DNA of 64,000 bases from Anaerolineae bacterium (GCA_963675785.1 OY776562.1:1856001-1920000), one strand, 5' to 3'. Numbered from the stretch's first letter, positions 56 through 50,565 are shown. The notes: generated from the sequence alone by a model not told the origin. Numbers and translations are program-made.

Positions 56-1204
56 GTGAACAAAGCCGCGCGAGTGATCCTCCGCATTCTGACCTCCCTT
101 TTATTGATTGCCGTAGTCGTAGTCCTTTTGGGCAGCGGCCTGCTTTACGTGCTGCAAGATGCCCGAGATAGAACGCCAGATTCTGACTTTGTCATCACTG
201 TCGATTCCATCGAACACGAACTGCTAGGTCTTTATCTCAGCTACAAAGGTGATGATACAATGGCAGCTCCAGAACCTGACAGTGAAAAGAGAGTCACCTT
301 TGTGGTTGAATCGGGCGCCGCGCTGGGTACCATCGCCACGCAACTAGAGACGGCCGGCCTGGTACAAGATGGTGATACTTTTCAAACGCTGGTGCAATAT
401 AACGGCCTCGAATACAGCATTCAGGCCGGTGTATTTTCACTGAGCCCCTCCATGGATATGGAAACGATTATGGAGCAGCTGCAACACGGCCAGATCGAAT
501 CTGCCCAGGTTACCATTGTGGAGGGATTGAGGGTTGAAGAAATAGCAGCTCAGTTAGAAGAGGCGGGGGTCGTCTCGCAGAATGAATTTCTCACAGCCGT
601 GTGGAATGGCCAGTTTGAGCATGACATTCTCGCAGACCGCCCTGATGAAATCCTATCACTGGAAGGCTATCTCTTCCCCGATACCTACTACTTGCCTCTC
701 AATACCGATGCAGACACAGTACTGCAAGTTATGTTGGACAACCTTTCACAGCGCCTGGGTGATGATCTGCTTGCCGAGATCGACGACCAAGGGACCACCC
801 TCTACGAGGCGCTTACCATGGCCAGCATCGTAGAGCGCGAAGCGATGGTAGACGAGGAGCGCGGACTCATCGCCGGTGTATATTACAACCGACTTGAGCA
901 GGGCATGGCACTGCAATCTGATCCCACCGTGCAGTATAGCAAGGGGTATAGCGAAGCGGATGCAACCTGGTGGGCACCCATGCTGCAAGAAGAGGCCCAG
1001 ACGGTAGTCTCACCTTATAACACCTTTATGGTACTGGGCCTGCCTCCCGGTCCCATCTGCAACCCGGGCCTGGCTTCCATTGAAGCCAGTGTTGAACCGA
1101 CCGAAAGCAACTATTTGTACTTTTATGCCAAGGGCGATGGCACACACGCCTTTGCCACCACCTACGAGGAGCATCTGGAAAATCAGGCCCTGTACGGGGG
1201 CTGA
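56..1204 (+). CDS. mltG: Endolytic transglycosylase MltG (YceG family)
   Basis: N-terminal TM helix; motifs LEGYLFPDTY, ASIVERE (catalytic Glu), LQSDPTVQY and SPYNT..GLPPGPICNPG; GTG start preceded by AGGAG. Confidence 0.93.
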   Translation: MNKAARVILRILTSLLLIAVVVVLLGSGLLYVLQDARDRTPDSDFVITVDSIEHELLGLYLSYKGDDTMAAPEPDSEKRVTFVVESGAALGTIATQLETAGLVQDGDTFQTLVQYNGLEYSIQAGVFSLSPSMDMETIMEQLQHGQIESAQVTIVEGLRVEEIAAQLEEAGVVSQNEFLTAVWNGQFEHDILADRPDEILSLEGYLFPDTYYLPLNTDADTVLQVMLDNLSQRLGDDLLAEIDDQGTTLYEALTMASIVEREAMVDEERGLIAGVYYNRLEQGMALQSDPTVQYSKGYSEADATWWAPMLQEEAQTVVSPYNTFMVLGLPPGPICNPGLASIEASVEPTESNYLYFYAKGDGTHAFATTYEEHLENQALYGG

Positions 1205-11021: not shown

Positions 11022-11028
11022 GATATAT

Positions 11029-11847
11029 CTATGCTCCTTGTGTGGTTCTTAAATTGTAAATGCTCTGCCGAGCAATTTCATGAGGGTCTATTATGGTATC
11101 AAAAGCTTCGACGGAAAGCCAGCCATCGTAGCCAATCTCATTCAATGCTGCCATAATCGGCTCAAAGGCCACGTCGCCCATGCCAGGGCCAAGGCGGTTG
11201 GGATCATTGACATGAACATGACGGATTCTATCCCCAACAAGCCGAATTTGATCGGCCACCGGGCGCGAATCATGAGCCATGGCCTTGACATCGACCATCA
11301 GACCGAACCCGGGCCGTCCTACCTCTTCCACAAGCTTGATAGCCTCATCAATGCAGGTGATAAACGCACACTCGGGGGCGGGTAAGGCTTCGATGCACAA
11401 AGTTACACCGCAATCGGCCGCCCGTTCACCACAATGCGCCATTGTTTGCCTAAACCAACCCCAGGCTTTTGCAAAAGGTACGCCTTCACAGGGATTACGC
11501 TGCGCTGGCGACCCCAACACCAAAATGCTCCCACCTAGCTCAGCGCACAGGTCTATTTCGGCCAGCAAATAGTCGGCCGCCGCTTCGCGTTGAGACGAAT
11601 CCGAGGAACAAAGGTGTTTGCCCTCGGTATGCGCCAACAGCCAATGCAGGCCAACTACGAGCAGGCCATTGTCTTCGATCTCGCGGCGAATACGATGGCG
11701 AACTTTGCCAGTCAAGTCATGCACATCGTCGCAAAGTGTATAGGGAGCAAGCTCCAGACCGGCATACCCCAGTTCAGCCAAAAAGGCCGCCGTATCAGCC
11801 AAAGGGCCCTCAAATAACTCATTACACATGGCATAGCGTTCTGCCAC
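11029..11847 (-). CDS. Sugar phosphate isomerase/epimerase (xylose-isomerase-like TIM barrel, D-tagatose/psicose 3-epimerase-like)
   Basis: GYAGLELAP, LCIEAL, LMVDVKAM, HVHVND..GPGMG and GYDGWLSVEAF. Confidence 0.88.
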   Translation of the reverse strand: MAERYAMCNELFEGPLADTAAFLAELGYAGLELAPYTLCDDVHDLTGKVRHRIRREIEDNGLLVVGLHWLLAHTEGKHLCSSDSSQREAAADYLLAEIDLCAELGGSILVLGSPAQRNPCEGVPFAKAWGWFRQTMAHCGERAADCGVTLCIEALPAPECAFITCIDEAIKLVEEVGRPGFGLMVDVKAMAHDSRPVADQIRLVGDRIRHVHVNDPNRLGPGMGDVAFEPIMAALNEIGYDGWLSVEAFDTIIDPHEIARQSIYNLRTTQGA

Positions 11848-23125: not shown

Positions 23126-25822
23126 TTAACCAAAAGCAGCGAAACCATCCAGTACCAGTTCTCGCATCAACCCCAGCACCCGATGCGCTGTCCTGGGAGA
23201 AAACCATTCCTCTATCTGCATTCCCTCGATAGCCTTCAAAGGATCAGGTGTGGATAAAGGATTCTCGGGCTGTCTACCATCACCAGCACACCACTGGAGC
23301 AAAGCAGACAAGGGAACTTCTAGAGCCTGACGCGAGCCATGAAACCGAGGCAGAACCTTCATCAGCACTGCTTGGTCAAAAGCTGCTTGATCGCCTCCCA
23401 ACGAATCGTAAATGCCGCTCCCATGAGCTGTCTGTACATAGCAAGCGATCTCGTCAAAGATACGATAGCCCACGTGCATCTTGTGTGGCTGTAATGTAAC
23501 GTTCAAAGCGAGTAGCCGTTCGCGCAGCCAGGGGATGCGCTCCAAACACTCAGCGACCTGTTGCTTACTGTTGTGCTGGAATTTGTTATCTCCCACCAAG
23601 ATATTGAGCAAAGCCTCGGAGCGCTCCAAGGTTCCCTCTGTAGCCGCACTAGGCACATAACTCGCAAAATCGACATCATTCAATTCTAGGGTAAAGGCAC
23701 GATCTAGCACCTTGGGGCTAAAAGAATAAGTCGTTTCATCGACATTGACTGTACCCACAATGTAGAAATTAGGGGGTAGATACAGCTCTTGTGGTGGCAA
23801 GTCCCCCCTAGCGTCTAGAGGCAAATTGAGGCGAAGAGGTTCTTTGGTAAAGCCATCTTGGCTGCGCCCTGATTCTAGAACGCTGAGCAAATCGGAGAAA
23901 TAGTATTCCACCCGAGCTAGATTCATCTCATCGAGGATAACGAACCAGGCCGTCTTTTCACCACGTTTGTAGCTTTCCGTAGCTCGCAATACAAAACGCA
24001 AAAAATCTGTCCACATATAGGTACCGGTAAGGGGGTTATAGTACCCCAGCAGGCTCTTGCTGTCGCGCCAATCAGTGCGCACCGATTCGAATAATGAATT
24101 AGGGATTTCTTCAGCATGGCCACTCGAACGCAAGGTAGCCTCTTTTTCTGTGAGGATGGTAATTTCCTTTAATTCGCCTCCGTCGTCAATGGTGAAATCC
24201 AGATAGGCTTTATCCCCAGCTCGAAACGCGTCCTTAAATCCAAGAGCACAATCTTCGCTGAGATTGAGACATAAACTAGATGAATTCGGATAAACATAGT
24301 GCGAAAGCAAACAAGGGGTAGAGTATTCACCACAATGAGTAGGAAAACGCTTCTTCTCTTCCATTTGAAGAAATGGAAAGCGCTCTAGAAAGCCTAGAGG
24401 TAAATCTATTTGCTTATTTGTAAGCATAGAAGGCCGAATAACAACGCTCGGAAGTGAATCATCGACCACCGTGATGACCGACTGGGGTAACATATCGGCC
24501 AAGGTTTGGGCGAGTTTGGTTTTGCCAGTACCAGAGATACCGGATAGGATGACGAATCCTTTGGTTTGCAGTGCAGTAAAGTAGGCGGCTAATTGCTCAT
24601 CCGTATAGTGCAAGTTGCGTGAAGCAGTACCTTCTTGCAAACAAGCCAATAAATTCCAAGAATCTTCTTGCTCCACTGTCGTTTCTGGAAAAACAGGGGA
24701 AGGCAACTCACGATCAAGAACTCTACGCATATATGATAAAACGCCCGGAGAATGAGATGAGCGCCAAGTGGAAATACTTCCCCACGCACACCATTCCTCA
24801 ATTATCGATTTATATTGGGTGAGCAAAAGCGGAAGGAAGGCTGTTGCACTACCCACAAAGATATCTGATGAAATCCATAGTAAGCGAGCTTGAGGGAATC
24901 TTTTGTAGGGCTCCCCAAGTTCTCCCTTTTCTATGACATCGTTCCAAAAAGCGAGAGAATCTCCTGATAGCTCGGGGTTATCGATAACCAACATTCCTAG
25001 TTTGTTTGCTTTAATTATGGCGACATAGCCTAAACCAATATTCAAAGTAAGTCCATTATCATGCAGAACAATACTCCAAGAAGCCTTTGCGCAATGATGG
25101 GCCAAATCAATGCATTCAGCCATAAAACCAAGAAACTGGTCACGTATAGCGGCATCTGGTAACAACTTTTCTATTACATCTCTGGCACTTGTTTCTTGTG
25201 CTCTCCATGCTTCTAATTCATTAGATTCATCAATATTTATCTTTGAGTAAGTGGGATCAGGCAAATCACGATCTAGATAATCGCGCATGTATAGCAAAAC
25301 CCCTACTGAATGAGCTTGTTTATAAGGAGAACTACCCGAAGACTTCCAAATAACAGGAAATATGTTTCCGTACTGTCGTAGCAAGAATGGCAGTAATTTT
25401 GGAAACATTGTTAGAAAGCTCTCAAAAGAAAACTGATATAGACGTGCTGAAGCAATAGTCTTGAATGGCTCTGAGGCACTTCCTTTTTCCAAGACCTCTC
25501 TCCACCAACTCTTTTCTTCCTCGCTGGATTCCAGAGTATCAGGAATAATGAACTCTATTATATTCGACTTAATCATTAGAATGCGGTATAGCCCAAAATT
25601 CATCGAAAATTCCGACTTTTTTAGCGTAATCTCCCACGCCCCAGGCGCATGATCATGCGCTAATTCGATACAATCGGCCATAAAGGTCAGAAACTGCCGC
25701 CGCAAGCCCTCCTCGGGCAAAAGCTTTTCGATCACCTCACGGGCGTAAGCGACGTCAGTACGGCGCTCTGACAGCGTATCCGCATCCTCCAGTTCGTCTA
25801 AAAAGACCTGATCGTCGCTCAT
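23126..25822 (-). CDS. McrB-family AAA+ GTPase (restriction/defence) with duplicated N-terminal domain
   Basis: Walker A GISGTGKT, VRTDWRD..LLGYYN, Walker B ILDEMNLARVEYYFSDLLSVLES, McrB signature GTVNVDETT..FSPKVLDRA; start ATG 25822 overlaps the upstream stop (ATGA). Confidence 0.88.
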   Translation of the reverse strand: MSDDQVFLDELEDADTLSERRTDVAYAREVIEKLLPEEGLRRQFLTFMADCIELAHDHAPGAWEITLKKSEFSMNFGLYRILMIKSNIIEFIIPDTLESSEEEKSWWREVLEKGSASEPFKTIASARLYQFSFESFLTMFPKLLPFLLRQYGNIFPVIWKSSGSSPYKQAHSVGVLLYMRDYLDRDLPDPTYSKINIDESNELEAWRAQETSARDVIEKLLPDAAIRDQFLGFMAECIDLAHHCAKASWSIVLHDNGLTLNIGLGYVAIIKANKLGMLVIDNPELSGDSLAFWNDVIEKGELGEPYKRFPQARLLWISSDIFVGSATAFLPLLLTQYKSIIEEWCAWGSISTWRSSHSPGVLSYMRRVLDRELPSPVFPETTVEQEDSWNLLACLQEGTASRNLHYTDEQLAAYFTALQTKGFVILSGISGTGKTKLAQTLADMLPQSVITVVDDSLPSVVIRPSMLTNKQIDLPLGFLERFPFLQMEEKKRFPTHCGEYSTPCLLSHYVYPNSSSLCLNLSEDCALGFKDAFRAGDKAYLDFTIDDGGELKEITILTEKEATLRSSGHAEEIPNSLFESVRTDWRDSKSLLGYYNPLTGTYMWTDFLRFVLRATESYKRGEKTAWFVILDEMNLARVEYYFSDLLSVLESGRSQDGFTKEPLRLNLPLDARGDLPPQELYLPPNFYIVGTVNVDETTYSFSPKVLDRAFTLELNDVDFASYVPSAATEGTLERSEALLNILVGDNKFQHNSKQQVAECLERIPWLRERLLALNVTLQPHKMHVGYRIFDEIACYVQTAHGSGIYDSLGGDQAAFDQAVLMKVLPRFHGSRQALEVPLSALLQWCAGDGRQPENPLSTPDPLKAIEGMQIEEWFSPRTAHRVLGLMRELVLDGFAAFG
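24689..25744 (-). repeat. Tandem duplication of a ~166-aa domain within McrB (units 25744-25247 and 25186-24689)
   Basis: AREVIEKLLP..FMADCIELAH..W.I.L...HSVGVLLYMRDYLDRDLPDPTY versus ARDVIEKLLP..FMAECIDLAH..W.I.L...HSPGVLSYMRRVLDRELPSPVF; both units span 498 nt. Confidence 0.9.
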
Positions 25823-27429
25823 TCCTTTTCCTCCACACGCATCGGTAGCGCCCCTACCCCAGCGATATTGCCAAACAACACGTTTTCCAGGCCTAGCGCA
25901 TACTCGGCGCCATCCGTACCGTAAAAACAAGCCGAGTCGCCCGGATAGAGGGCCACGGCAGCACGCAGTTTAAGCGCATCACGGTACGTGTGCATCTTGT
26001 ATAGGTCGGCATGTTTAGCCGCCGTCCTTTCGTTATCGGGCTGATCGAGACTAGCCAGACGATCCAGGCGAAACTTGGCATCGAGTGCCACGTCGCGATG
26101 ACCCTGGCGGTGCCAGGTGTAATCTGGCCGCAACAGCACCGAGTAACTGTTGGGCCGCGCAAAGCCACGGTTGTATTCGAGTACGCCACAATCCGCAAAA
26201 ACAGCACGCGCCCCATGTTCCAATCCGGTCTCATCCGAAAGAATCAACGTTAGTTTAGGATCAAAACCGCTTATAGCTTTGATGCGATCAATGAGCCAGT
26301 AGAAACCCCACACCTCGTAAAGCGTAGCCACATCGCGCAAAGAGATAGCCTGTTCGATACGATCATAGAGGGGATGACGCGAGAGATGGAACAAGCGCCA
26401 GAGCTGTAGCAATTCGCGGTAACCGTCCCGACGGAGTAAAACTTGGGAGCGAAACGGCAACAAGCGCATAGGGCCAACATCCGCAAAGGCTGGATTCTTG
26501 GTCCAACCCTGTAGATAGACGCGAAGCATATCGAGAGACTGGCGATCACCCTCTCCCAACCTGGGCCACCAACGCTGAGCCTGCAAATCGAACAACACTT
26601 GTTCGAGCGCTTTTACGAAATAGACTACAAAGCGGTTTTCGGGATTATCGCAGGTCTCGTACGGACAACGTTGCCAAACATGCGAAGGGACATAACGTCG
26701 CCCTTGGCGGTCAGAGAGACCAGTGTTCAAACGAGTAGATATCCATCGCTGCGGAGACTGAAGCACATCTAGCAGTACATCCGCATCCAACTCTGCAGCA
26801 GCCCCCGTCTCTATCAAACGGGAATCATCGGTCAAAGTGCGATACGTCGCACGTTGGATAACCTGAAGCGCCTCTATTAGCGCCTGAGCATAGGTGCGCA
26901 AGAAATAAAGCACAAACAAACGCGAGGGTATACGTAGACTTTCAGAGGTAGCCAGCATGGTGGTTGCTGAAGGAGCAAAGGGTAATCGTGCTGCACGTTC
27001 GTAAAGATCATCGATGAGGCTTTGAGAAAAAGCCAGATGCTCACGTGCATCGGCGTGTTTGTTCGAGATGATCAGCAGACACAAAGAGTTGGCATCCCGA
27101 TGTCCCTCGTACTCGGCTTTTATATGAGCCAGGCCAACTTGGTTTTCGAAACACAAGCGGAAAATGTTACCTTTAACCGGGGTAAGGCGTTGTCCAGAAA
27201 GCCAAAGAGCTTTTATGCCTGGGCAATCGATATAGTACTCATGCCATTCGCGAATCCAGGCCGATACCGGTGGAATCTCTAGTGGCACACAGGTTGCCTT
27301 AACCCAGCCAAGGCGGCTATGTTCTGTATCGAGCTGAGCAAGGAAATCAGTACACCAACTAGACGCGTTCTGTTGAAGAGCGCATTCTACCACGTTCGCA
27401 ATATGAGTGTCCGTTTGTGTCGTCTCCAT
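25819..27429 (-). CDS. McrC-like DUF2357 / PD-(D/E)XK nuclease
   Basis: ETCDNPENRFV, LYEVWGF, catalytic LRPDY...LDAKFR, DLYKMHTYRDAL and ALYPG. Confidence 0.88.
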   Translation of the reverse strand: METTQTDTHIANVVECALQQNASSWCTDFLAQLDTEHSRLGWVKATCVPLEIPPVSAWIREWHEYYIDCPGIKALWLSGQRLTPVKGNIFRLCFENQVGLAHIKAEYEGHRDANSLCLLIISNKHADAREHLAFSQSLIDDLYERAARLPFAPSATTMLATSESLRIPSRLFVLYFLRTYAQALIEALQVIQRATYRTLTDDSRLIETGAAAELDADVLLDVLQSPQRWISTRLNTGLSDRQGRRYVPSHVWQRCPYETCDNPENRFVVYFVKALEQVLFDLQAQRWWPRLGEGDRQSLDMLRVYLQGWTKNPAFADVGPMRLLPFRSQVLLRRDGYRELLQLWRLFHLSRHPLYDRIEQAISLRDVATLYEVWGFYWLIDRIKAISGFDPKLTLILSDETGLEHGARAVFADCGVLEYNRGFARPNSYSVLLRPDYTWHRQGHRDVALDAKFRLDRLASLDQPDNERTAAKHADLYKMHTYRDALKLRAAVALYPGDSACFYGTDGAEYALGLENVLFGNIAGVGALPMRVEEKE

Positions 27430-40318: not shown

Positions 40319-42043
40319 TCAGCTCAGCACGTAGCGGGCACGCCGCCAGGTTCGCCACCCAAGGTAGCCTGCCAAGGCGAGCACAGCCAGCAAGCCAAGC
40401 GCACGCAGCCAGGGGAAGGTTACATTTTCGGACGTGAGCACTTCCAGCGCGTCCACAGCCACACTCGCACCTTCAGTCGTGCCCTCATCGGCCAGGGTAA
40501 CCGTAATGGTATGCTGCCGCACGTCCACGCCATCGACCAGTGTCAATTGAACACTAGCCCCCAATCCCCCCGCGGGAATGTCGATATAGGTACGTCCCTG
40601 CTCGTCCTTATCCAAGCCACCAGCAGCAGCGCCATCCATAACAACGTATAGGCGCAGTGCGGCAACGGGACGTTGGATGATCATATCCAAGCGAGAACCA
40701 GAGAACGTAAAGGTGATGCTGTCTCCCGGCTCATCAGAGATCATCGCACTGCCGCCATTAGCCTGTTCATCCAGCACGGGCTGCCAGTTGCCGATGAACT
40801 TGACGGCCGGATTCGTCTCCTCATAGTGGCCCAGGGTGGGGATATCCTGCTCGGTAGCAGCCTCTTGGACTGCCAGATAGAGCGGCCGCGGCGTAAAGTC
40901 CGTATCCACCATGCGGAAGTAATACTCGGCAGATGTATCTGGGATCTGGCCTACCTGCCGGAAATACCAGACCATGAACACACCCGCCCAGGGCCATTCT
41001 TCACGAGCCATTTGAATGCCTTGCACCGTATAGGCGGCCTGTTCAGCTTCGCTAACCCGTCCCCAAACAAGCTGGTCTTCCGTAAAGCCTGCAGGAGCCG
41101 CATTCCAGCCGTATTCGTTAAACCATACGGCCTTTTCGGCGTCGCCATAACGCACCATAATCTCACGATGCAACAATACCCGCTGGAAATTCAGTACCCC
41201 GGGATCGGGAGGATCATCTGGAGAGCCGCCCATACCAAAAACGTTGGCAGAGTAGATATCAAAATAGTCGGCGGCGCCAGCCTCATACATTGCTTCCAGA
41301 TAGGTCAAGTCGTTCATCGAGCGCCACTTGCCCTCCTCGGGGTGAGCTTCTCCCAAGGTAAAGGCCAATGGCGCGCAGAGCACCTGAATATTGGGGTCTG
41401 CCTCTTTGGCGCGTGTGTAGGCTATCTGGAGCATCTCTACATACGCTTCAGGATCGACAGGTTGATTGCCCCATTCAGGATAGATGTTGGGCTCGTTCCA
41501 TATCTGGATATAGTGGATGCGCCCTTTGTAGTGAGAGACAAAGGCATACACAAAGTCGCCATAGTCTTCAAGGTTGTCAGGCGGCGCGTTAGAGATAGAG
41601 TTGTCCTCGCGCGTCCAATCAGGTGGGGAATCCAGGCGGGCAACGACTTGCAGCCCTTGGGCCTCACAGGCCGTCACAATAGCGTCATACTTGGCCCAGC
41701 TATCGGTGTTCGTCCCCGGAACCAAGAATTCGCCCTGACGCGTTGGCTCTATCTCTGCCCAAGAGAACTGTTGCTTGACCCAGCCAAGCCCTGCCTCCGA
41801 AGCCATCTCCAGGGTAAGGTCGCGCTTCCAGGTTTCCACCTCGCGTTCGAGGAAAAAGTTGGCCCCATAAGGATTAAGGTCCGTGTTGGCAATAGTTCTT
41901 GCCTGCACGGCAGTTTCATCGTCCGGGGTTTGCCCAAGGTAATCCGCGATCGTCAGACCCAGGAGCGCAATAGCTGCGGCGCCCACAATGATGATAATGG
42001 CCAACCTGATACGCCAAAGTGTCGGCATTGTTCGTTCTGCCAA
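40319..42043 (-). CDS. Membrane-anchored clan GH-A glycoside hydrolase (GH5/GH39-like) with CBM-like C-domain
   Basis: IWNEPN (acid/base) and WFNEYGW (nucleophile); N-terminal and C-terminal TM helices. Confidence 0.8.
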   Translation of the reverse strand: MAERTMPTLWRIRLAIIIIVGAAAIALLGLTIADYLGQTPDDETAVQARTIANTDLNPYGANFFLEREVETWKRDLTLEMASEAGLGWVKQQFSWAEIEPTRQGEFLVPGTNTDSWAKYDAIVTACEAQGLQVVARLDSPPDWTREDNSISNAPPDNLEDYGDFVYAFVSHYKGRIHYIQIWNEPNIYPEWGNQPVDPEAYVEMLQIAYTRAKEADPNIQVLCAPLAFTLGEAHPEEGKWRSMNDLTYLEAMYEAGAADYFDIYSANVFGMGGSPDDPPDPGVLNFQRVLLHREIMVRYGDAEKAVWFNEYGWNAAPAGFTEDQLVWGRVSEAEQAAYTVQGIQMAREEWPWAGVFMVWYFRQVGQIPDTSAEYYFRMVDTDFTPRPLYLAVQEAATEQDIPTLGHYEETNPAVKFIGNWQPVLDEQANGGSAMISDEPGDSITFTFSGSRLDMIIQRPVAALRLYVVMDGAAAGGLDKDEQGRTYIDIPAGGLGASVQLTLVDGVDVRQHTITVTLADEGTTEGASVAVDALEVLTSENVTFPWLRALGLLAVLALAGYLGWRTWRRARYVLS

Positions 42044-42102: not shown

Positions 42103-42205
42103 CGCTGCACAAAGCAGTTGTTACACCCATTGCGCATGACAAGAGCAAGGCGATATGTTACAATTGCGCAACAGGTGGGGCTTTAACCACATCATGAGGG
42201 AGACC

Positions 42206-45200
42206 ATGCCGCCTGAGCAGCCCGAACGCATCGATATTGATCTTAACGTTCTGCCGCCCGAGTTTCGTCGGCGCCAGATCAGCCCAATCTTTATGCTGCT
42301 CTGGGTTCTATCGGGTATCTTGTTGGTTGCGTCTATAAGCAGCCTCATTATCCGGCAGACGAGCACCTCTTCCGCAGCTGAGCTTCAAACGCAAATAGCT
42401 CAGATACGCATTACCTCCGATTCACTCAATACACCATCGACAGAGCTTGTCGAACTTTCGAATGAATTGGCCCAGGTTGAAACCGATTTGGCAGATCTCG
42501 AGGCACTATCAGCCACAGTGCTTGGCGCTCGTCCAGATTGGGAAGCAATTGGTGCAGCACTTCTCCAATATGATTCGGGCGCTCTGACCATCAGCGAGAT
42601 GGTACAAAATGGCAGCAATCTAAGTGTTAGCGGCAGTGCCGCCTCACGGAATGATGTGCTAACCTATGCGACCTGGCTCGAAGAAAGCAATGTCTTTGAC
42701 AACGTGCTGATCCAATCCATGGTCGACATGGAAGGCCCATTTGTCACGCCAACGCCAGCCGTGCAGACTGGCCAGACGCCGGTTCAAAGCGGAACCTCCG
42801 TCCTTACGACAACCCCTCAGGCCACGTCCAGCCCTTATGATGGATACGAGGCCGACGACTATGACCCGCAGCCCATCTCGATCAACGAAACCCAGTGGCA
42901 CAGCTTTAGTCCAATTTACGATATCGATCAGGTTACCTTTACCGGCAAAGCTGGACGCCGTTATTGCATCTTGGCCCTGCCGCAGAGCTCCGGAGTCGAT
43001 ACAACCCTGCTGGTCACCATAGGCGACTCTTCGTACTATAACGACGATTGTTTTCCTGATACCTCAGAGCCCCTGGCCTGTGATTGCCCTACAGGCACCT
43101 TTACAGCCACAAGAGCATCCATGGTCGAGGTACAAATTGACGATGACGAGGATCAACTCGTCAGTATTCTGGTCAGCAACAACGGTGAGTACGGCGCGGA
43201 CCAGTGGTACACCCTATTTGTCTCTGAATCAACCGGCGACGCCTACGAGGACGACGATATACAGGCCAAAACAATTGCCACCGGGGAAACGCAGCTGCAC
43301 ACTTTTTACCCAGATGGCGACATAGATCGAGTGACATTCTCCATCAAGCAGGGACGAGCATACGAAATTCGCACCACTGATCTTACTCTGGGCTTGGATA
43401 CGGTCATCACAGTCTCTGCCAACGGCACTACGTTCGAGAATGATGATGTTACCCCCGGCGATCGCTCATCCAGCGTCACTTTTACGGCTACAGCCGATGG
43501 GAATGCCCAAGTGCTGGTTATGAACGCCGGGCAATTTGGTTTAAACATGTCCTACAATCTCCAGGTTCTGGAGGTGGGCGGTGATGCTTACGAGATGGAT
43601 GACTATGTACCCGCCTCAATCTCGCCAGGAGAGGAACAAGAACACAGCTTTTATCCTGATAATGATATCGACCGCCTAACTTTTAACGTCAAAGCGGGAA
43701 ACACCTACGCGCTCAGTACCTACAGCCTGACCGTTGGCGTTGATACTGTTGTTTCGGTTCTGTACAACGGACAGGTTTACCAGAACGACGATGCCACCTC
43801 GACCAATCGCAATTCGTCTGTTCAGTTCAGTGCATCTCAGAGCGGCACAGCGCTGGTTACGATTACCAATCTTGATCGCTATGGCTCTGACAAGCTATAT
43901 TGGGTTACACTCACTGAATCTGGCACAGTAGCAACGCCAGGCACATCGCTTTATACTCCAACGCCAACCTGTGCAGATGCCTATGAACCGGATGACATCA
44001 TTCCCTACAGCATCCTCGTTAACCAATCTTACGAACACACCCTGTGCAGCACTGGCGATATCGACCGGGCCGTCTTTACGGCCAAAGCCGGCTATGCCTA
44101 CATCATCGAGACCACGGACCTAGGGGCCAGTGCGGATACAGTGATTACGGCGCTCATTGGCCAGCAACAAAGTAGCAATGATGATCGCAGTCCGCAAGAC
44201 CTGAGCTCTCGCCTAGAAGTACAAAACAACACGACCTCTGACCAGCCAGTTTATATCACTATTACAAACCAGGGCTACTATGACGAGAACAGCAGCTATA
44301 CACTGACTGTGAGCAATGCCGGAGTTGGTGATGATTATGAGCCAGATGATGATTCACCAACTTCTATCACGCCAGGAATTCAGCAAAAACATACCTTTTA
44401 CCCGCCAGGAGATGTAGATTCGGTACAATTCACGGCAAAATCGGGACATCGTTACCGAATCTTTACGTCCAGTGAGTCCAGTTTGGTAGATACTGAAATA
44501 GTTGTCACCATGGGTAGTGTTACCCTGCGGAACGATGATCGTATTCCGGGTGATGTGACATCCTACATCGAGTTGCAGAACGATGAGGCCGCCAATCTAG
44601 TTGTCACGGTGACCATCTTTAACAAGGGGGACGACGATCCTGATGCAACATATACGTTGCAGGTTGATGATATGGGCACAACGGGGTCCGATAGTTACGA
44701 GCCGGATATGACGTCAATCCAATACCTCTCGGTAGGTGAGATTCAATATCACACCTTCTACCCCGATGAGGATGTCGACCGCGTGTTCATGCAAGTCAAA
44801 GCGGGGCGTCGCTATGCGGTGTACACCTGCGGTAACCCTTACCAAAGCGCCAGCACGCCTATACCAACAACGACACCTTACTCATCGACACTAGATTTAT
44901 GTATGCCGTTGGTGCCAGGTGTCGATACAGTAATCCGCGTTCAGGGTGAAGTACAGAGCTGCAGTCCGTCTGGTTGCGTGAGCGACGATATCTATGCTGG
45001 TTCTGGCTATTTGAACTCCCGGGTCGAATTTGAAGCCATTTCTGATGGCTTGGTGGTTATCTATATTGAAAACGAAGGATTATACGGAGAAACGCGAGAA
45101 TACTATTTGCTAGCTGATGAAATCGGGGCCAGTATCACCACACCCGTTCCGACAACTGCGGCTAGTCTGCACAAAACTGACATCAAGTTGTGCTCCAATA

Positions 45201-45313
45201 TCTCGCGACCAGACATCGAACCCATAAGAAAATCGCAAGACACGCAAACGTCGAGTCAAGGGGTAGGCGTCAGTTTCACACTTTTGCTGGAATTGCGGGA
45301 GGTTGAGCCATGA
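42206..45313 (+). CDS. PilN-like type IV pilus assembly protein with six inserted PPC-like repeats
   Basis: IDLNVLP (PilM-binding INLLP motif), TM, coiled coil, RPDW...LSVSGSAASRNDVLTYATWLEESNVFDNV, repeat array, terminal VSFTLLLEL; start ATG 42206 (GAGGGAG RBS). Confidence 0.78.
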   Translation: MPPEQPERIDIDLNVLPPEFRRRQISPIFMLLWVLSGILLVASISSLIIRQTSTSSAAELQTQIAQIRITSDSLNTPSTELVELSNELAQVETDLADLEALSATVLGARPDWEAIGAALLQYDSGALTISEMVQNGSNLSVSGSAASRNDVLTYATWLEESNVFDNVLIQSMVDMEGPFVTPTPAVQTGQTPVQSGTSVLTTTPQATSSPYDGYEADDYDPQPISINETQWHSFSPIYDIDQVTFTGKAGRRYCILALPQSSGVDTTLLVTIGDSSYYNDDCFPDTSEPLACDCPTGTFTATRASMVEVQIDDDEDQLVSILVSNNGEYGADQWYTLFVSESTGDAYEDDDIQAKTIATGETQLHTFYPDGDIDRVTFSIKQGRAYEIRTTDLTLGLDTVITVSANGTTFENDDVTPGDRSSSVTFTATADGNAQVLVMNAGQFGLNMSYNLQVLEVGGDAYEMDDYVPASISPGEEQEHSFYPDNDIDRLTFNVKAGNTYALSTYSLTVGVDTVVSVLYNGQVYQNDDATSTNRNSSVQFSASQSGTALVTITNLDRYGSDKLYWVTLTESGTVATPGTSLYTPTPTCADAYEPDDIIPYSILVNQSYEHTLCSTGDIDRAVFTAKAGYAYIIETTDLGASADTVITALIGQQQSSNDDRSPQDLSSRLEVQNNTTSDQPVYITITNQGYYDENSSYTLTVSNAGVGDDYEPDDDSPTSITPGIQQKHTFYPPGDVDSVQFTAKSGHRYRIFTSSESSLVDTEIVVTMGSVTLRNDDRIPGDVTSYIELQNDEAANLVVTVTIFNKGDDDPDATYTLQVDDMGTTGSDSYEPDMTSIQYLSVGEIQYHTFYPDEDVDRVFMQVKAGRRYAVYTCGNPYQSASTPIPTTTPYSSTLDLCMPLVPGVDTVIRVQGEVQSCSPSGCVSDDIYAGSGYLNSRVEFEAISDGLVVIYIENEGLYGETREYYLLADEIGASITTPVPTTAASLHKTDIKLCSNISRPDIEPIRKSQDTQTSSQGVGVSFTLLLELREVEP
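42839..45125 (+). repeat. Six tandem ~115-145 aa acidic beta-sandwich (PPC-like) repeats
   Basis: Consensus D.YE.DD....I..G..Q.H(T/S)FYP..D(I/V)D...F..KAG..Y...DT.......NDD....S.V; units start near 42839, 43235, 43580, 43973, 44327 and 44687. Confidence 0.9.
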
Positions 45314-45957
45314 ACATGGATATCAAGGACCTCCCTCGAATTTGGCAAGAACTGAACAAGACATTGGTCTATACTATTGTGGCAGCAGTCGTTGCGCTAA
45401 CAATGACCGCACTGACGCTCCCGAGAGCCATTACAGCTATCTCGGAAAAAAGTGCTGTACAGGCCGAGTATGACCAGTTGTACAGCAGCGTTCAGCAGCG
45501 GATTACTCTACTCAATAGCCAACCCCAAGTATTACAGCAGAATATTGAAGAAACCATTGTAGAAGCCCAGGCCCTTGCAATAGAACTGGCCACGGCTGAA
45601 CAGGCCAACGCCGTAATGGCTGGTCTTTATAACAAAGCCACGCAGGCCGGCGTCTCTGTGACGCGAATTGACCCCATCACCGAGCTACAGGGTGATGATG
45701 CTGTCGAGATTTTTGCTTATGACAAGCAACAAGTGGTTGTTGAAGCTGTTGGTACAGCACAGAATTTGATTCTCTTTCTTGAGCTTGTATCTGACTTTGG
45801 TGTTCCAAGCTATCATGTCGAGGATGTTGCCATGTCATCTGATACAAGCTTGGTACTTTCGTTTGATGTTATTGGCTATTCATCAGACTATGCAGGTGCC
45901 ACGGCAATCGCTTTGGCCCAAACGGGCGATTTGATTGTCGCAAAAGTATGGAGGTAA
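45310..45957 (+). CDS. PilO-like type IV pilus assembly protein
   Basis: TM plus coiled coil, then LYNKATQAGVSVTRI...VEAVGTAQNLILFLELV, a GspM/PilO-like pattern; ATGA overlap with pilN. Confidence 0.65.
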   Translation: MNMDIKDLPRIWQELNKTLVYTIVAAVVALTMTALTLPRAITAISEKSAVQAEYDQLYSSVQQRITLLNSQPQVLQQNIEETIVEAQALAIELATAEQANAVMAGLYNKATQAGVSVTRIDPITELQGDDAVEIFAYDKQQVVVEAVGTAQNLILFLELVSDFGVPSYHVEDVAMSSDTSLVLSFDVIGYSSDYAGATAIALAQTGDLIVAKVWR

Positions 45958-45961
45958 TGCC

Positions 45962-47077
45962 ATGAAACAGCGGCGCCATATAACTCTGAATGCGCTGGCC
46001 ATCGGCCTGGCGTTAATCATAATGACCCTGGCACCCTCAGCGACAGCCCCTCGCGTTTTGGCCCAGGACACTGCTACAGCTACTGCTACATCGAGCAGCC
46101 TGACCGAACAATTGGATGCCGCCTGGAGTCTTCAGGATTGGGTGGAGGTTTTACGCCTGCTGGATCTCATTGAAGTACAAGACCCTAGCTACTCAGAGTT
46201 AGAAGACAAACGGTATTTCGCTTATGTCAACTATGGCTATGAGCTGATGACGCAGAATAAATGCACCGAGTCACTTTCTGCGTTTCGTAACGCTTTACTG
46301 GTTCGTTCTGATGGGGATGAAGCCGAAGCAGGCCTTGAGCTGTTGGAACGCTATTGCACAACACCCATTCCCGGAACTGCGACACCTACAACACCGGCCT
46401 CATCTGCCACAAGCACGCCCGTACCCAGCAACGGCACAACGACATCATACACTGTCCAATCGGGCGATACGCTCTACAGTTTGGCCAAGACCTACGGCGT
46501 AACCGTCCAAGAGATTATGCAGGCCAACGGATTGAACTCGTACTTTATTCGTACAGGGCAGACACTGATTATTCCTGCAGAGGAGAGCGATCCTACTGAA
46601 GTCCGGGTGCACATAGTTCAGCCCGGCGAAACACTGTTCCATGTGGCCAACCAGTATGACACGACCGTCTCGGCGATCATGTCATTGAACGGACTTACCA
46701 GCTATAGTATTTGGGCCTACCAAGCGCTTTACATACCTGCTGCCGAACAACCGGACATGATTTTGCATACGGTAGCCGCAGGGGAAACCCTCTACAGCAT
46801 CGCCAAGGAATATGGCGTTTCTCTGGCTATGTTGATGAAGGCCAACGGTTTGGAAAACTATACCATTTATATTTATCAGCAAATCGCCATACCACCCGAA
46901 GACTGGTCTGGCGATCTGGTAACCACCCCAACCACAGCAACGACCCATCTGGTGGTTGCAGGGGATACTCTGTTTAGCATTGCCCGCACCTATGGCACGA
47001 CAGTCACAGCTCTCAAGAGCGCGAATGGGCTCGGGTCATCGACGATTTATGCGGGCGACACTCTGCGCATACCCTAG
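45962..47077 (+). CDS. Secreted protein with a helical/TPR-like N-domain and four LysM domains
   Basis: Signal peptide (VLA-Q); four V..G(D/E)TL..(I/L/V)A..Y......NGL....I.....L/I.IP units; GGAGG RBS. Confidence 0.88.
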   Translation: MKQRRHITLNALAIGLALIIMTLAPSATAPRVLAQDTATATATSSSLTEQLDAAWSLQDWVEVLRLLDLIEVQDPSYSELEDKRYFAYVNYGYELMTQNKCTESLSAFRNALLVRSDGDEAEAGLELLERYCTTPIPGTATPTTPASSATSTPVPSNGTTTSYTVQSGDTLYSLAKTYGVTVQEIMQANGLNSYFIRTGQTLIIPAEESDPTEVRVHIVQPGETLFHVANQYDTTVSAIMSLNGLTSYSIWAYQALYIPAAEQPDMILHTVAAGETLYSIAKEYGVSLAMLMKANGLENYTIYIYQQIAIPPEDWSGDLVTTPTTATTHLVVAGDTLFSIARTYGTTVTALKSANGLGSSTIYAGDTLRIP

Positions 47078-47085: not shown

Positions 47086-47967
47086 ATGGCCAAAAATCGC
47101 GCCATTACGACAATCAGTATAGATGCTACAAGCATCAAGTTCTTGACCGCACTGCAAGGGCACGTGGAGCAGTTTGGTAGCGTACAATTGCCTTTGGGTC
47201 TCATTATAGAAGGTTTGGTTACGGATACCGCCGAGTTGGGGCGTATTCTTGATCTTTTAATTCGCGAGCATGATCTCGGGCGTGAGGAGATCATTGTGGG
47301 AATTGATGCAATCCGCTCAATTCCGCGCATTTTGACGTTGCCCAACGTACAGAGCAATCTGCTGGAGCAAACCATCCAGCGAACAGCACGCAAAGAGATG
47401 CCCGTTTCGGTCGATACACTTTATCTTTCCTGGCAAGAACTGCCGGCCGGTGCGGATGAAAAACGTATCTATGTCGTGGGTGTACCACGCGACAGTGTGG
47501 ATTCGCACGTGGCCGCCCTTCAGAACGCCTCCATCAAGCCCTATTTGATGGATTTGCGGCCGCTGGCCCTCGTGAGAGCCATTGGACAAAAAGATGCTGT
47601 CATTCTCTCGCTGGAGCCGCGTGTACTCGATATCATACTGGTAGCGAACTGGATACCCATCATCGTGCGTACCTTTGACGTCGATGCATCAGTACGTTCA
47701 ATCGAAGATCGTGTTCAATTGCTTTCGAGTGAAACCGGTCAGACAATCCGATACTATAACGACAGCCACCGAGAACATGTGCTTGGCGTGGAAACACCGC
47801 TTTATTTTACCGGCAATCTCGCTCAATCGCCCGGCTTGGTGGATGCGTTGGTTAACGAGATGAATCGGCCCGTATCGCTTCCAGAATCACCGATGCCCTG
47901 TCCGGCCGAGATGCCCGTTCCTGTTTACATGACGAATATTGGCCTTGCACTCAAGAAAAGAGTTTGA
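47086..47967 (+). CDS. pilM: PilM-like actin-family pilus assembly protein
   Basis: ISIDATSIK, LPLGLIIEGLVTD, RILTLP, EMPVSVDTLYLSW, MDLRPLALVRA, TIRYY, YFTG and NIGLALK. Confidence 0.78.
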   Translation: MAKNRAITTISIDATSIKFLTALQGHVEQFGSVQLPLGLIIEGLVTDTAELGRILDLLIREHDLGREEIIVGIDAIRSIPRILTLPNVQSNLLEQTIQRTARKEMPVSVDTLYLSWQELPAGADEKRIYVVGVPRDSVDSHVAALQNASIKPYLMDLRPLALVRAIGQKDAVILSLEPRVLDIILVANWIPIIVRTFDVDASVRSIEDRVQLLSSETGQTIRYYNDSHREHVLGVETPLYFTGNLAQSPGLVDALVNEMNRPVSLPESPMPCPAEMPVPVYMTNIGLALKKRV

Positions 47968-48896
47968 GCCGTGGACTTGATTGTTTGCAATTTGAGCAAA
48001 ATCTGATGAGCATCTCGCCGGAAACGGGGAATATTATCATCGGAATCATGTTCGCAATGATCGGTGGCGTCATCGGTAGCTTTTGCAACGTTCTGGCAGA
48101 TCGAATTCCTGCCGGCAAGAGCATCTGGCAACCACCTTCCCATTGCGATGGCTGTGGTCGCCGACTCACGCCAATGGAGATGGTGCCCGTATTCAGCTAT
48201 TTGGTGTTGCGAGGTCGCTGTCGAACTTGCGGGCAGCGCGTACCAAAAAGGGTACTTTGGGTTGAACTCATCACTGCAGGTTTGTTCGCTTTGATATGGT
48301 TCCAAGTAGGGCCGCAAACATGGCTCGAACTGGGTCCGCTCATGATACCCGTTGAGCCATTGGCAACCATGGCGATAACAACCGTGCTAGTGGCACTCTT
48401 TATAACCGATATGGAACAACAGCTACTGCCCTCCAGCATTATCTATACGGGATTGGGGCTTGCTGTAATCTTGGCATTGTTGAGATATGCTGCTGGGGGC
48501 TTTCGTATTAGTCATTATGGCCTCATTGCAGTGCTATGGCCGCAGTTAGTAGTCGAACACGGTTGGAGTTTTTTGACACTTGATTTAATAAGCCAACCTG
48601 CCGGAATGATCATCGGTTTTGCACTGTTCTGGTTGATTTGGCGCATATCTCGCGGTGGCATGGGATATGGCGACGTACGCCTGGCGGCGCTGTGTGGTCT
48701 TGTTCTCGGCGCGCCTGGTATTATTGCTGCTTCCATGGCCTCCTTTGTGTTAGGAGGGCTAGCCGCCGTTGTCGTACTCGTAAGCCGACGAGGGAACATG
48801 AAAACTGCCATTCCCTTTGGCCCATTCCTGATCCTCACAAGCTTTGTCTGGATGGTGTGGGGAAATGAATTGATGAAAAGCTATCTCGGCATTTAG
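47964..48896 (+). CDS. pilD: Prepilin peptidase (A24A)
   Basis: GSFCNVLADRIP, SHCDGC, VPVFSYLVLRGRCRTC, ITD, GMGYGDVRL and IPFGPFL; alternative start ATG 48006. Confidence 0.93.
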   Translation: MSRGLDCLQFEQNLMSISPETGNIIIGIMFAMIGGVIGSFCNVLADRIPAGKSIWQPPSHCDGCGRRLTPMEMVPVFSYLVLRGRCRTCGQRVPKRVLWVELITAGLFALIWFQVGPQTWLELGPLMIPVEPLATMAITTVLVALFITDMEQQLLPSSIIYTGLGLAVILALLRYAAGGFRISHYGLIAVLWPQLVVEHGWSFLTLDLISQPAGMIIGFALFWLIWRISRGGMGYGDVRLAALCGLVLGAPGIIAASMASFVLGGLAAVVVLVSRRGNMKTAIPFGPFLILTSFVWMVWGNELMKSYLGI

Positions 48897-48924: not shown

Positions 48925-50016
48925 ATGTCAAGCACCGGTGCAGGAGAACCCGTCAGCGATATCAACGAACTGTTGACGCTGGCCCAGCGCATCGAAGCAT
49001 CAGATATCCATCTCAAGGTGGGGCGCCCCCCCATCATGCGTGTATTTGGCGAATTGCACGTGCAATCTCTGTACAAGCCGCTAACGGATGATGATCTCGA
49101 TCGCATTGTCAACTCAATCACCAACCAAGCTCAAAGGCAGCGTTTTGAGGAGCAGCTCGAACTTGACCTCTCTTACGACCTGCCGGGAGTGGCCCGTTTT
49201 CGTGTCAATATTGGCCGAGAAAGGGCGCATACAACCATTGTCATGCGCTTGCTTTCCAATGCAATTCCATCACTTGATTCGTTGCGTCTACCCTCGGTTT
49301 GTAAAGAACTCATCATGAAGCCGCGCGGCTTGATTCTGGTGACGGGGCCAACGGGGAGCGGCAAGTCAACGACATTGGCTTCGCTCATTGACTATCGCAA
49401 TGCCCGACGGGCAGATCGGATCATCACCTGCGAAGACCCGATCGAGTACGTTTTTGAAGACAAGCATTGCCTGATCACCCAACGCGAGCTCGGCGAGGAT
49501 ACGCCCTCGTTCGCTTCTGCGCTCAAGCATGCCCTCCGCCAAGACCCTGATGTAATTCTGGTGGGAGAAATGCGCGACCCGGAGACCATTCAGGCCGCCC
49601 TAACTGCCGCAGAAACCGGACACCTGGTGCTTTCTACGCTGCACACCAATGGCGCAGCTCTTACCGTAGACCGCATCATTGACGTATTCCCCGCTCATCA
49701 GCAGGCACAGATCCGCACGGTGCTTTCCAACATCCTGGTGGCCGTTCTTTCGCAAACACTGGTGCCTTCTGCCGGCGGGCACGGACGAGTGGCCGCAGTA
49801 GAGGTGATGATAGCAAACAGCGCCATAAGCAACCTGATTCGCGAATCGAAAACGCATCAGCTCAACGGCGTCATCGAGACCGGTGCGCGAAATGGCATGA
49901 AAACACTGGATCAGGCTCTGATTGAACTTTATCGGCGTGGTGCCGCCACACTGGAAGATATCTTGGAAAAAGCCAATGATCCCGAACGCGTCCGCGGTCT
50001 AGCCCAACCTCGTTAA
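48925..50016 (+). CDS. pilT: Type IV pilus retraction ATPase PilT
   Basis: ASDIHL, GPTGSGKSTT, EDPIE, LRQDPDVILVGEMRD, AETGHLVLSTLH and AISNLIRE (AIRNLIRE-like). Confidence 0.95.
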   Translation: MSSTGAGEPVSDINELLTLAQRIEASDIHLKVGRPPIMRVFGELHVQSLYKPLTDDDLDRIVNSITNQAQRQRFEEQLELDLSYDLPGVARFRVNIGRERAHTTIVMRLLSNAIPSLDSLRLPSVCKELIMKPRGLILVTGPTGSGKSTTLASLIDYRNARRADRIITCEDPIEYVFEDKHCLITQRELGEDTPSFASALKHALRQDPDVILVGEMRDPETIQAALTAAETGHLVLSTLHTNGAALTVDRIIDVFPAHQQAQIRTVLSNILVAVLSQTLVPSAGGHGRVAAVEVMIANSAISNLIRESKTHQLNGVIETGARNGMKTLDQALIELYRRGAATLEDILEKANDPERVRGLAQPR

Positions 50017-50202: not shown

Positions 50203-50565
50203 ATGCGTAACGAGAGAGGTTTTACCCTTATTGAGCTTTTGATCGTGTTGGCTATTCTGGCTATCCTGGTTGGCGTAGTAGCCATGAGCGTTGGTGGCAT
50301 TACAGATACAGCCAATACCCGGGCCATGAGTGCCGAACTTGAGGTTGTGCAAACAGCCATTGACACTTACAAGACCCTTGACGGCACACTGAGCAGCTCT
50401 AACACTATTAGTGCACGTACAACTGCCGCAGTGATCACATCTTCTGACACAGATGCGCCGTTCTACAAATACCTGGATTCTTCGACCAAGTACACATACA
50501 CCTGGACGGCTTGGACTGGCCTAAGTGATACCACAGGCGGTATCGCTTCAAACCCGGATATGTAA
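50203..50565 (+). CDS. pilA: Type IV pilin (probable major pilin)
   Basis: Class III signal MRNERG|FTLIELLIVLAILAIL; AAGGAG RBS; flanked by terminators, so monocistronic. Confidence 0.88.
   Translation: MRNERGFTLIELLIVLAILAILVGVVAMSVGGITDTANTRAMSAELEVVQTAIDTYKTLDGTLSSSNTISARTTAAVITSSDTDAPFYKYLDSSTKYTYTWTAWTGLSDTTGGIASNPDM

Follow-up and report, generated by a model that had tools for sequence, protein, structure and literature searches.

The window analysed here is a 64,000-nucleotide stretch of an Anaerolineae bacterium genome (GCA_963675785.1, OY776562.1:1856001-1920000) that carries an operon for a type IV pilus (T4P). Its first gene, called pilN* below, encodes a protein that begins like the assembly subunit PilN, runs through six domains resembling the PPC domains of collagenases, and ends in a short β-strand that would complete the PilN fold. 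pilN* lies in a single, uninterrupted open reading frame (window 42155-45313, +). Translation likely starts at 42206 rather than at 42155, because a Shine-Dalgarno-like site (GAGGGAG) stands 5 nt upstream and all 15 full-length relatives start at an equivalent MP..., about ten residues ahead of the IDLNILP motif; the ribosome-binding site and these homolog starts speak against the longer N-terminus. The parts of the gene are listed with their basis in brackets; pLDDT (predicted local distance difference test) values refer to the AlphaFold2 model.

42206..45313, +, pilN* coding sequence, 1035 aa (open reading frame and translation, ribosome-binding site, 15 full-length relatives)
42233..42256, +, PilM-binding-type motif DIDLNVLP, residues 10-17 (invariant residues; aligns to the start of PilN 3jc8_Na)
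42284..42352, +, transmembrane helix, residues ~27-49 (uncharged stretch within model helix 27-73)
42353..42523, +, extracytoplasmic coiled-coil stalk, residues 50-106 (model helices 27-73 and 79-106; coiled-coil structural matches)
42524..42736, +, PilN core part one, residues 107-177, helix-strand-strand-helix-strand (PF05137, model, structural matches)
42737..42838, +, linker 1, residues 178-211 (composition; pLDDT <50)
42839..43237, +, PPC-like domain 1, residues 212-344, with a Cys-bearing extra loop (repeat alignment)
43238..43582, +, PPC-like domain 2, residues 345-459 (best PF04151 stretch 374-437; 4dxz_A match over 345..457)
43583..43930, +, PPC-like domain 3, residues 460-575 (5sv5_A match, model range 465..570)
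43976..44329, +, PPC-like domain 4, residues 591-708, preceded by a 15-aa Pro/Thr linker (1nqd_A match)
44330..44683, +, PPC-like domain 5, residues 709-826 (3jqw_A match, model range 709..823)
44690..45139, +, PPC-like domain 6, residues 829-978, with a ~32-aa Cys-bearing insertion (repeat alignment)
45140..45259, +, linker 2, residues 979-1018 (pLDDT 25-34; 40% Pro/Thr/Ser)
45260..45295, +, terminal strand, residues 1019-1030, including VSFTLLLEL at 1022-1030 (model, structural matches, conservation)

A first-pass annotation, made from the DNA alone, had listed the motifs of this protein, and all of them are present in the translation: IDLNVLP (residues 11-17), a transmembrane helix, a coiled coil, W112...LSVSGSA...F164.NV.I, six D.YE.D motifs (at residues 212, 345, 460, 591, 709 and 829) and VSFTLLLEL. 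The array of ~800 aa that it described is indeed a run of six units, with a measured length of 767 aa (212-978); the whole insert, counted with its linkers from the end of the third strand (177) to the start of the last (1019), is 841 aa long. Linker 1 (34 aa) is 56% Pro/Thr/Ser and contains no charged residues.

Identity of the N-terminal part

There is strong support for reading pilN* as the gene of the PilN subunit in a type IVa pilus (T4aP) assembly machine, and the first-pass assignment of the N-terminal part to PilN holds. The Pfam PilN profile PF05137 aligns to residues 128-174 (profile positions 15-61 of 78); it scores 24.8 bits, over its cut-off, in a six-frame search of the genome and 20.7 bits, just under the cut-off of 22.8, in the protein scan. 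A profile built from a 16-sequence family alignment matches, over positions 11-157, residues 3-144 of Myxococcus xanthus PilN (3jc8_Na; E value 0.0029). In the same alignment D12, N14, L16 and P17 of the N-terminal motif are invariant; a PilM-binding role is ascribed to IDLNVLP-type motifs of PilN (PMC13319060, PMC6916266; these and the papers below are cited from excerpts).

Other hallmarks of PilN are present. A short N-terminus with the PilM-binding-type motif is followed by one transmembrane helix, then by a coiled coil (many coiled-coil proteins superpose on residues 25-108 in a structural search with the AlphaFold2 model) and by a ferredoxin-like core, which is complete only if the C-terminal strand is counted. 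The neighbours are a pilO-like gene, pilM, pilD, pilT and a pilin gene, as in the relatives' loci L027, L028 and L030. An exhaustive phmmer search of 1.84 billion representatives with residues 1-185 finds 298 proteins at E <= 0.001, 47 of them at E <= 1e-10. A word-index search for shorter relatives with the same residues returned none at E <= 0.001, a blank that is a limit of the method, phmmer later finding the 298. Forty of the 298 were scanned, and every one matches PF05137 at E <= 0.01, with 35 clearing the cut-off.

The long form is a natural gene and not an assembly chimera, the possibility that the first-pass annotation had itself raised. The source genome is one contig of 3,217,757 bases. 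A word-index search recovers 15 full-length relatives (941-1579 aa, 40-49% identity, 80-100% of the query covered), which keep the same order of parts and align end to end with the pilN* protein. Invariant residues of the 16-sequence alignment lie in the N-terminal motif, the core and every repeat except the fifth, in which conservation is at least 90% and no residue is invariant. F1024 of the last strand is likewise conserved in at least 90%, and 14 of the 15 relatives terminate in V/I-x-F-x-L/V-L-L, the exception (P0010) being labelled partial at source. A scan of species-representative genomes matched 53 loci, of which 29 extend from query residue <=58 to residue >=972; each of the 29 comes from a metagenome-assembled genome (MAG) that bears the label Anaerolineae, Anaerolineales, Anaerolinea or Chloroflexota/Chloroflexi. 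At the other loci the repeat region is matched, in some cases to the C-terminus, and the N-terminal core is not; eight such repeat-only loci lie outside Chloroflexota, seven in named other phyla and one in an unclassified bacterium. Assembler collapse or chimerism of the repeats is excluded because they are only 32-45% identical to each other. This divergence, the relatives, the MAG loci and a paralog in the same genome (described below) together rule out a chimera or a fusion of unrelated genes.

The PPC-like array

The six units align over ~115 columns with pairwise identities of 32-45% and 15 invariant positions; the repetition is genuine, neither chance nor low complexity. The array is acidic (120 D+E vs 33 K+R). 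Its PPC-like nature, suggested by the first-pass annotation, is borne out both by the Pfam PPC profile PF04151 (28.4 bits vs a cut-off of 25.9, E 3.2e-6, two stretches, the best at 374-437) and by superposition of the model on the collagen-binding and PPC domains of collagenases (Z score, root-mean-square deviation (rmsd) and aligned residues given):

1nqd_A, ColG collagen-binding domain s3b: Z 12.9, rmsd 2.1, 104/111, model range 591..704
3jqw_A, ColH collagen-binding domain: Z 12.6, rmsd 2.2, 107/117, model range 709..823
5sv5_A, Bacillus collagenase PPC domain: Z 11.9, rmsd 2.2, 99/105, model range 465..570

The tandem ColG domains s3a-s3b (5iku_A) also superpose on the array, with Z 12.1. 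Neither the Pfam nor the NCBIfam scan detects a peptidase domain in the pilN* protein, and the PPC-like units are thus not C-terminal to a peptidase.

Acidic residues are invariant at unit positions D1, E4, D6, D28 and D30, and an N-D-D motif is present in five of the six units. The invariant acidic positions fall roughly at what we take to be the Ca2+ ligand sites of ColG s3b, an approximate equivalence drawn from residue numbers and range offsets only. The ColG collagen-binding domains require Ca2+ for collagen binding (PMC6168687). Domain 1 carries four cysteines that are invariant in the family alignment (C254, C282, C292 and C294), and domain 6 two invariant (C875, C899) and one nearly invariant (C924). 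Because cysteines are conserved in domains 1 and 6, an extracytoplasmic location of the array fits.

The terminal strand and the split PilN core

The AlphaFold2 model of the whole protein has a mean pLDDT of 71.3. Its elements are a helix (112-120), two strands (127-135 and 138-145), a helix (148-160), a third strand (164-177), the six β-domains and the terminal strand (1019-1030). The latter stands alone in the sequence, with a mean pLDDT of 84 over residues 1021-1030, and is flanked by disordered linkers (pLDDT <50). In the VIA structural search against representatives, periplasmic domains of the PilN/PilO/GspL/GspM type superpose on model ranges that start at residues 107-111 and end at 1029-1035:

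6ghu_A, XcpY: Z 9.4, rmsd 1.9, 74/78 aligned, model range 109..1029
2w7v_B, EpsL: Z 8.8, rmsd 1.9, 74/82 aligned, model range 109..1031
2rjz_B, PilO: Z 9.5, rmsd 2.9, 82 aligned, model range 111..1035
3jc8_Oa, PilO (architectural model): Z 9.6, rmsd 3.7, 88 aligned, model range 107..1034

Z scores below ~8 in this search can reflect common arrangements; the matches here reach 8.8-9.6 and cover near-complete target domains. Residues 109-177 alone cannot fill a 74-residue match on a 78-residue domain, so that in the model the terminal strand occupies the position of the last strand, as the first-pass annotation had anticipated from the sequence.

The relatives provide a second line of evidence. 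A profile of the six repeats was used to count PPC-like domains in 163 relatives, and their number ranges from 0 to 10:

0 domains: 80 proteins, median 213 aa
1 domain: 20 proteins, median 450 aa
2 domains: 24 proteins, median 585 aa
3 domains: 9 proteins, median 718 aa
4 domains: 8 proteins, median 820 aa
5 domains: 6 proteins, median 961 aa
6 domains: 13 proteins, median 1058 aa
7 domains: 2 proteins, median 1179 aa
10 domains: 1 protein, 1579 aa

A strand motif of the VEFVILLEL type is found within the last 30 residues of 146 of the 163 proteins; as a control, this pattern, a loose one, was run over 2350 internal 30-residue windows and matched 441 (18.8%). The 17 proteins without it either end within a repeat or linker, as truncated genes would, or carry variants of the pattern (P0028, P0069, P0090). 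In eight of 30 insert-free relatives scanned, short-loop proteins of ~190 aa (P0089, P0108, P0071, P0066, P0138, P0150, P0053 and P0128), the Pfam PilN profile also takes in the terminal strand, reaching positions 74-77 of 78, and in all forms with longer loops or inserts it halts at ~59-68. When short and long forms are aligned, homology runs up to the third strand, after which there is either a hairpin and a strand or a Pro/Thr linker and the first repeat.

Two further computations were made. Complex prediction of residues 100-182 with residues 1000-1035, each supplied with the family alignment, gave scores of 0.51, 0.52 and 0.50, and 0.45 for one unrelated 36-residue control, so that it weighs neither for nor against docking of the strand. 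A Foldseek search of the PDB with the whole model listed no PilN-type match among its generic multi-sandwich proteins (TM 0.07-0.11), the sole informative match being the ColG tandem domain 5iku (TMt 0.38).

The superpositions, the graded series of relatives and the profile coverage agree, and it is very probable that the array is nested in the PilN core between strand 3 and strand 4, the last one, i.e. in the loop to which the first-pass annotation had assigned it. Because both of its ends are pinned to the core, the array forms a loop closed on itself instead of a freely dangling tail.

Relatives and the insertion site

The same site accommodates other domains. A 647-aa PilN relative has an F5_F8_type_C domain there and ends in VSFVLVLEL, a 929-aa relative has a CarboxypepD_reg domain and ends in VDFTIIVEV, and some relatives combine BACON_2 with PPC-like domains. 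Insert-free forms often have a Pro/Thr loop of 25-35 residues at this position. Judged from these sequences, the site between strand 3 and the terminal strand is an insertion hot spot.

The N-terminal query matches 15 of 401 sampled genomes of the phylum (GTDB, E <= 1e-5) and 33 of 301 sampled genomes of the class (E <= 1e-3), the source genome included in both cases; these counts are lower bounds, a single-sequence query being insensitive. In its own family two of ten genomes match, and class-wide the matched open frames measure 87-2194 aa.

The PilM-binding-like motif is unevenly distributed. By a strict pattern, and in the 163-protein set, which is ranked by likeness to the query, it occurs in 20 of the 22 proteins that have at least five PPC-like domains, against only 5 of the 61 that have one to four and 13 of the 80 that lack them. 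The distribution suggests that one putative subfamily couples to PilM and a second does not.

The pilus operon and its genome

Downstream of pilN* the operon continues on the same strand in the order pilO-like, LysM, pilM, pilD, pilT and pilin:

45310..45957, +, PilO-like gene, 215 aa, start overlapping the pilN* stop (ATGA)
45935..47077, +, TPR-like, four-LysM membrane-anchored protein, 380 aa (PF01476, E 1.7e-63, four stretches)
47086..47967, +, pilM, 293 aa (PF11104, E 7.5e-12; TIGR01175, E 4.5e-14, below cut-off)
47964..48896, +, pilD prepilin peptidase, 310 aa (PF06750, E 2e-29; PF01478, E 3.3e-10)
48925..50016, +, pilT retraction ATPase, 363 aa (TIGR01420, E 1.9e-142, 474.5 bits, over cut-off)
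50203..50565, +, type IV pilin, 120 aa (N_methyl PF07963, E 9.5e-11, residues 1-26)

The PilO-like product resembles the PilO part of a PilO-TPR-LysM fusion in relative L028 (BLASTP E 6e-4); against the PilO-LysM fusion of the paralog locus the BLASTP comparison is not significant (E 2.2). In the ESM Atlas it falls, at scores of 0.93-0.94, among clusters some of which bear the PilO label on 39-51% of their members; this serves as a lead only. The LysM protein of the window matches the TPR-LysM part of the same fusion (L028:11451-12905) with E 8e-29, so that the two window genes correspond to two halves of one L028 protein. The four-LysM protein is a putative peptidoglycan-binding partner. The short pilM product matches PilM profiles only over its first ~167 residues.

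The pilB and pilC genes are found at ~0.525 Mb of the same genome. A third weak match to the PilN profile (E 0.29; G000:C1:528472-528555) lies in a 403-aa frame just downstream of pilC, and a Tad-like ATPase gene with TadB/C-like genes lies at ~2.80 Mb. No secretin was found: the genome, 94.8% complete, has no match to PF00263, in line with the first-pass proposal of a cell without one.

Related loci vary around this theme. A relative of the same family has pilC, minor pilins, pilN* with six domains, the LysM protein, pilD, pilT and a pilin gene; another has pilN* with three PPC-like domains and BACON, a papain-like protease gene, pilO-TPR-LysM, pilM, pilD and pilT. In L028 (genome G596), a gene for a secreted 1377-aa Peptidase_C1 protein with lectin-like, BACON_2 and PPC domains (7270-11403, +) sits between pilN* and pilO-TPR-LysM in the T4P operon.

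A two-domain paralog at an archaellum-type locus

The paralog mentioned above lies ~60 kb upstream of pilN*, outside the window. It is 528 aa long (PF05137, E 2.6e-7), shares the core of the pilN* protein, carries two PPC-like domains and ends in SVQFSILLII; it lacks the PilM-binding-like motif. Its AlphaFold2 model (pLDDT 71.6) places a terminal strand at 515-524, and the same type of periplasmic domain superposes from the core to the C-terminus:

2rjz_B: Z 9.9, range 105..528
6ghu_A: Z 9.5, 75/78, range 102..523
2w7v_B: Z 8.7, 79/82
4bhq_B, Thermus thermophilus PilN: Z 7.7, rmsd 1.7, 68 aligned, range 119..528

The structural search again matches its PPC-like domains to the collagen-binding-domain fold. 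The paralog belongs to an archaellum-type cluster at G000:C1 ~1827794-1838520 (L004:5795-16520). Upstream of it are three Arch_flagellin genes, a gene for a CheY-like receiver and one for a receiver-KaiC (ArlH-like) protein; the cluster continues with a 559-aa T2SSE (ArlI-like) protein, a 508-aa T2SSF (ArlJ-like) protein, a 394-aa unknown, the paralog itself and a PilO-LysM fusion.

Comparison with known systems

Canonical PilN (T. thermophilus 4bhq, the M. xanthus 3jc8 model, PF05137) likewise has a PilM-binding-type motif, a transmembrane helix, a coiled coil and a ferredoxin-like core, and the pilM neighbour and downstream pilO-like gene extend the likeness. Canonical PilN is ~200 aa long, with its last two strands on a short hairpin, whereas here that hairpin holds 841 residues. 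Canonical machines also have PilP and PilQ, unlike this genome, in which no secretin and no such partner was found. The periplasmic domains of GspL/EpsL/XcpY and of PilO/GspM (6ghu, 2w7v, 2rjz, 7ze0) superpose almost completely on the split core. These families are sisters of PilN in type II secretion and T4P systems but are not known to have the PilM-binding N-terminal peptide arrangement of the pilN* protein, and GspL has a cytoplasmic domain of its own.

The PPC domains of clostridial and Bacillus collagenases (1nqd, 3jqw, 5iku, 5sv5) share the β-sandwich fold, the tandem arrangement and the acidic N-terminal motif with the units described here. Unlike them, the pilN* units sit inside a membrane protein that belongs to a pilus machine, have no attached peptidase and are not C-terminal, and their sequence likeness is too low for sequence searches of the PDB.

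Two precedents come closest in terms of envelope. In Streptococcus sanguinis and other monoderm Firmicutes a PilMNO subunit, PilO, is also enlarged in a secretin-less envelope, and the enlarged PilO was proposed to aid the crossing of peptidoglycan or the anchoring of the machine (PMC6916266). Here, in contrast, it is PilN that is enlarged, its extra domains are nested in the fold, and peptidoglycan binding is predicted to fall to a separate or PilO-fused LysM protein. In Litorilinea aerophila, pilN and pilO-LysM beside the archaellum genes were proposed to form a scaffold for the filament through the wall (PMC12488501, PMC13319060). The source genome has the same type of locus, the one ~60 kb upstream, whereas pilN* is part of a T4aP operon that also holds pilM, pilD and pilT; a supplement of PMC12488501 lists Anaerolineales T4aP clusters that include pilN. 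The excerpts of these papers mention the LysM fusion of PilO and no extra domains of PilN. The terms 'PPC' and 'pre-peptidase' have no occurrences in PMC13319060, and the two of seven 'PPC' matches listed for the supplement of PMC12488501 are locus-tag prefixes.

Enlargement of PilMNO subunits in secretin-less envelopes thus has precedents in the Firmicutes PilO and the L. aerophila PilO-LysM. The first-pass annotation knew of no T4P machine with this architecture; in excerpts of the literature searched, with subscription journals outside the search, no description of domains nested in PilN was found either.

Possible function of the nested array

The favoured explanation as a whole, a nested PilN whose arrays form a collar in the wall around the pilus, has in our estimate a probability of roughly 0.6. 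Its topology is the strongly supported part: the N-terminus with its PilM-binding-type motif is cytoplasmic, and one membrane helix and the coiled coil lead to the PilN core. The chain then exits the core through the Pro/Thr linker, builds the six sandwiches, comes back through linker 2 and closes with the strand that completes the core. The D-x-Y-E-x-D-D, D-[IV]-D and N-D-D motifs may bind Ca2+ and stiffen the domains, as in the clostridial collagen-binding domains. From the alternation of secondary-structure elements, the hairpin between strands 3 and 4 should face away from the membrane. PilN and its PilO-like partner would form a multi-copy ring, with the arrays encircling the exit of the pilus. 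With no secretin, the arrays and the four-LysM protein might anchor the machine in peptidoglycan or outer layers, line the passage, or both, and the reach would depend on how many domains are inserted (0 to 10 in relatives). In favour of such a wall context are the missing secretin match, the four-LysM gene of the operon, the fusions of pilO with LysM in relatives and at the paralog locus, and the domains of glycan-binding or adhesion type that relatives carry at the insertion site.

Of these steps, the wall-anchoring or wall-spanning role of the array is put forward tentatively, at slightly less than even odds. A bolder version, in which the arrays of the ring build a Ca2+-stiffened PilN collar or channel through peptidoglycan and outer layers that functionally replaces PilP-PilQ in Chloroflexota, domain number acts as a ruler of the envelope and the two-domain, motif-less form was co-opted for a horizontally acquired archaellum, is speculative and rather doubtful.

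Several observations weigh against the favoured explanation. The evidence assembled here bears on architecture and not on function, and a binding or a processing role is equally compatible with the PPC fold, since in other proteins PPC domains bind substrates or are removed by cleavage. With respect to function, the Ca2+ ligands are not aligned residue by residue with those of ColG, and a single repeat or the six-repeat profile compared with PDB sequences gives chance-level matches only (E 0.1-0.66), with no collagenase domain among them. The predicted template modelling score (pTM) of 0.28 means that the model does not fix the mutual arrangement of the six domains. On the side of identity, PF05137 reaches 20.7 bits in the protein scan, under its cut-off of 22.8, no NCBIfam family matches the pilN* protein, and the PilO-like product has no match in Pfam (nor one in NCBIfam). 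Finally, 268 of the 301 class genomes have no N-terminal match, and the nested architecture is for this reason not a general need of secretin-less Chloroflexota.

The best surviving alternative is that the PilN core is as described and the array is a ligand-binding or adhesin module, which captures an external polymer or a substrate of the machine near the pilus base; a glycan, a collagen-like or sheath protein and the surface of a neighbouring cell are candidate ligands. PPC and collagen-binding domains are binding modules in collagenases (PMC6168687), the structural matches of the array are to collagen-binding domains, and relatives carry lectin-type domains (F5_F8_type_C, BACON_2 and CarboxypepD_reg) at the same site. 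Each of the six domains, moreover, keeps its own conserved features across orthologs, as would be expected of specific surfaces. However, linkers of 34 and 40 residues tether both ends of the array to the membrane-proximal core and limit its reach beyond the envelope, and the operon offers no evident ligand candidate. On balance this alternative is unlikely.

Less likely still, and a poor prospect overall, is a regulatory or processing module, in which Ca2+ or cleavage of a linker controls docking of the last strand, stability of PilN and assembly of the machine; in the cleavage variant, PilN would persist as two non-covalently joined pieces after the cut. The PPC domains of secreted proteases are commonly removed after secretion, and mature forms with and without PPC exist (PMC3327674). 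The linkers of pilN* are long and disordered in the model, and one relative has the papain-like protease with PPC and BACON domains between pilN* and pilO. That protease neighbour, however, is found at one of the four relatives' loci examined and not in the window, and the maintenance of six domains at 40-49% identity across many MAGs points to a function of the folded domains.

That the reading frame is no true single PilN, and is instead an artefact, an unrelated fusion or a member of the PilO, GspL or GspM families, is highly improbable: structural matches to PilO and GspL are as good as those to PilN and PF05137 stays below its cut-off in the protein scan, but the order of parts recurs in the 15 relatives, 29 named MAG loci and the paralog, the repeats are only 32-45% identical, and the N-terminal motif, the 35 of 40 relatives over the PF05137 cut-off and the separate PilO-like gene downstream all speak for PilN.

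The passage of type IV pili, and of archaella too in Chloroflexota, through a wall that has no secretin is a question raised in PMC6916266 and PMC13319060. The nested PilN family is a candidate defined by its sequence, a core subunit with a variable, putatively wall-directed array at one fixed site, and the series from 0 to 10 domains, together with the swaps of domain type, is a ready-made set of variants for tests of reach and anchoring. The architecture would also be a clear case of large multi-domain nesting in a fold of ~80 residues. Annotation pipelines that expect contiguous domains miss such nesting: the PilN profile ends at ~61-63 of 78 in every long form scanned.

Other features of the window

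The divergent upstream neighbour of pilN* (window 40319-42043, -) encodes a 574-aa protein that has transmembrane helices at its two ends and whose only profile match is a weak one to CE2_N (E 0.0026). On visual inspection the protein resembles a glycoside-hydrolase-like enzyme acting on wall or glycan. Farther upstream, window 23126-27429 (-) encodes a 934-aa AAA_5 ATPase followed by a 536-aa protein with DUF2357 and a PD-(D/E)XK nuclease domain, together an McrBC-like restriction pair.

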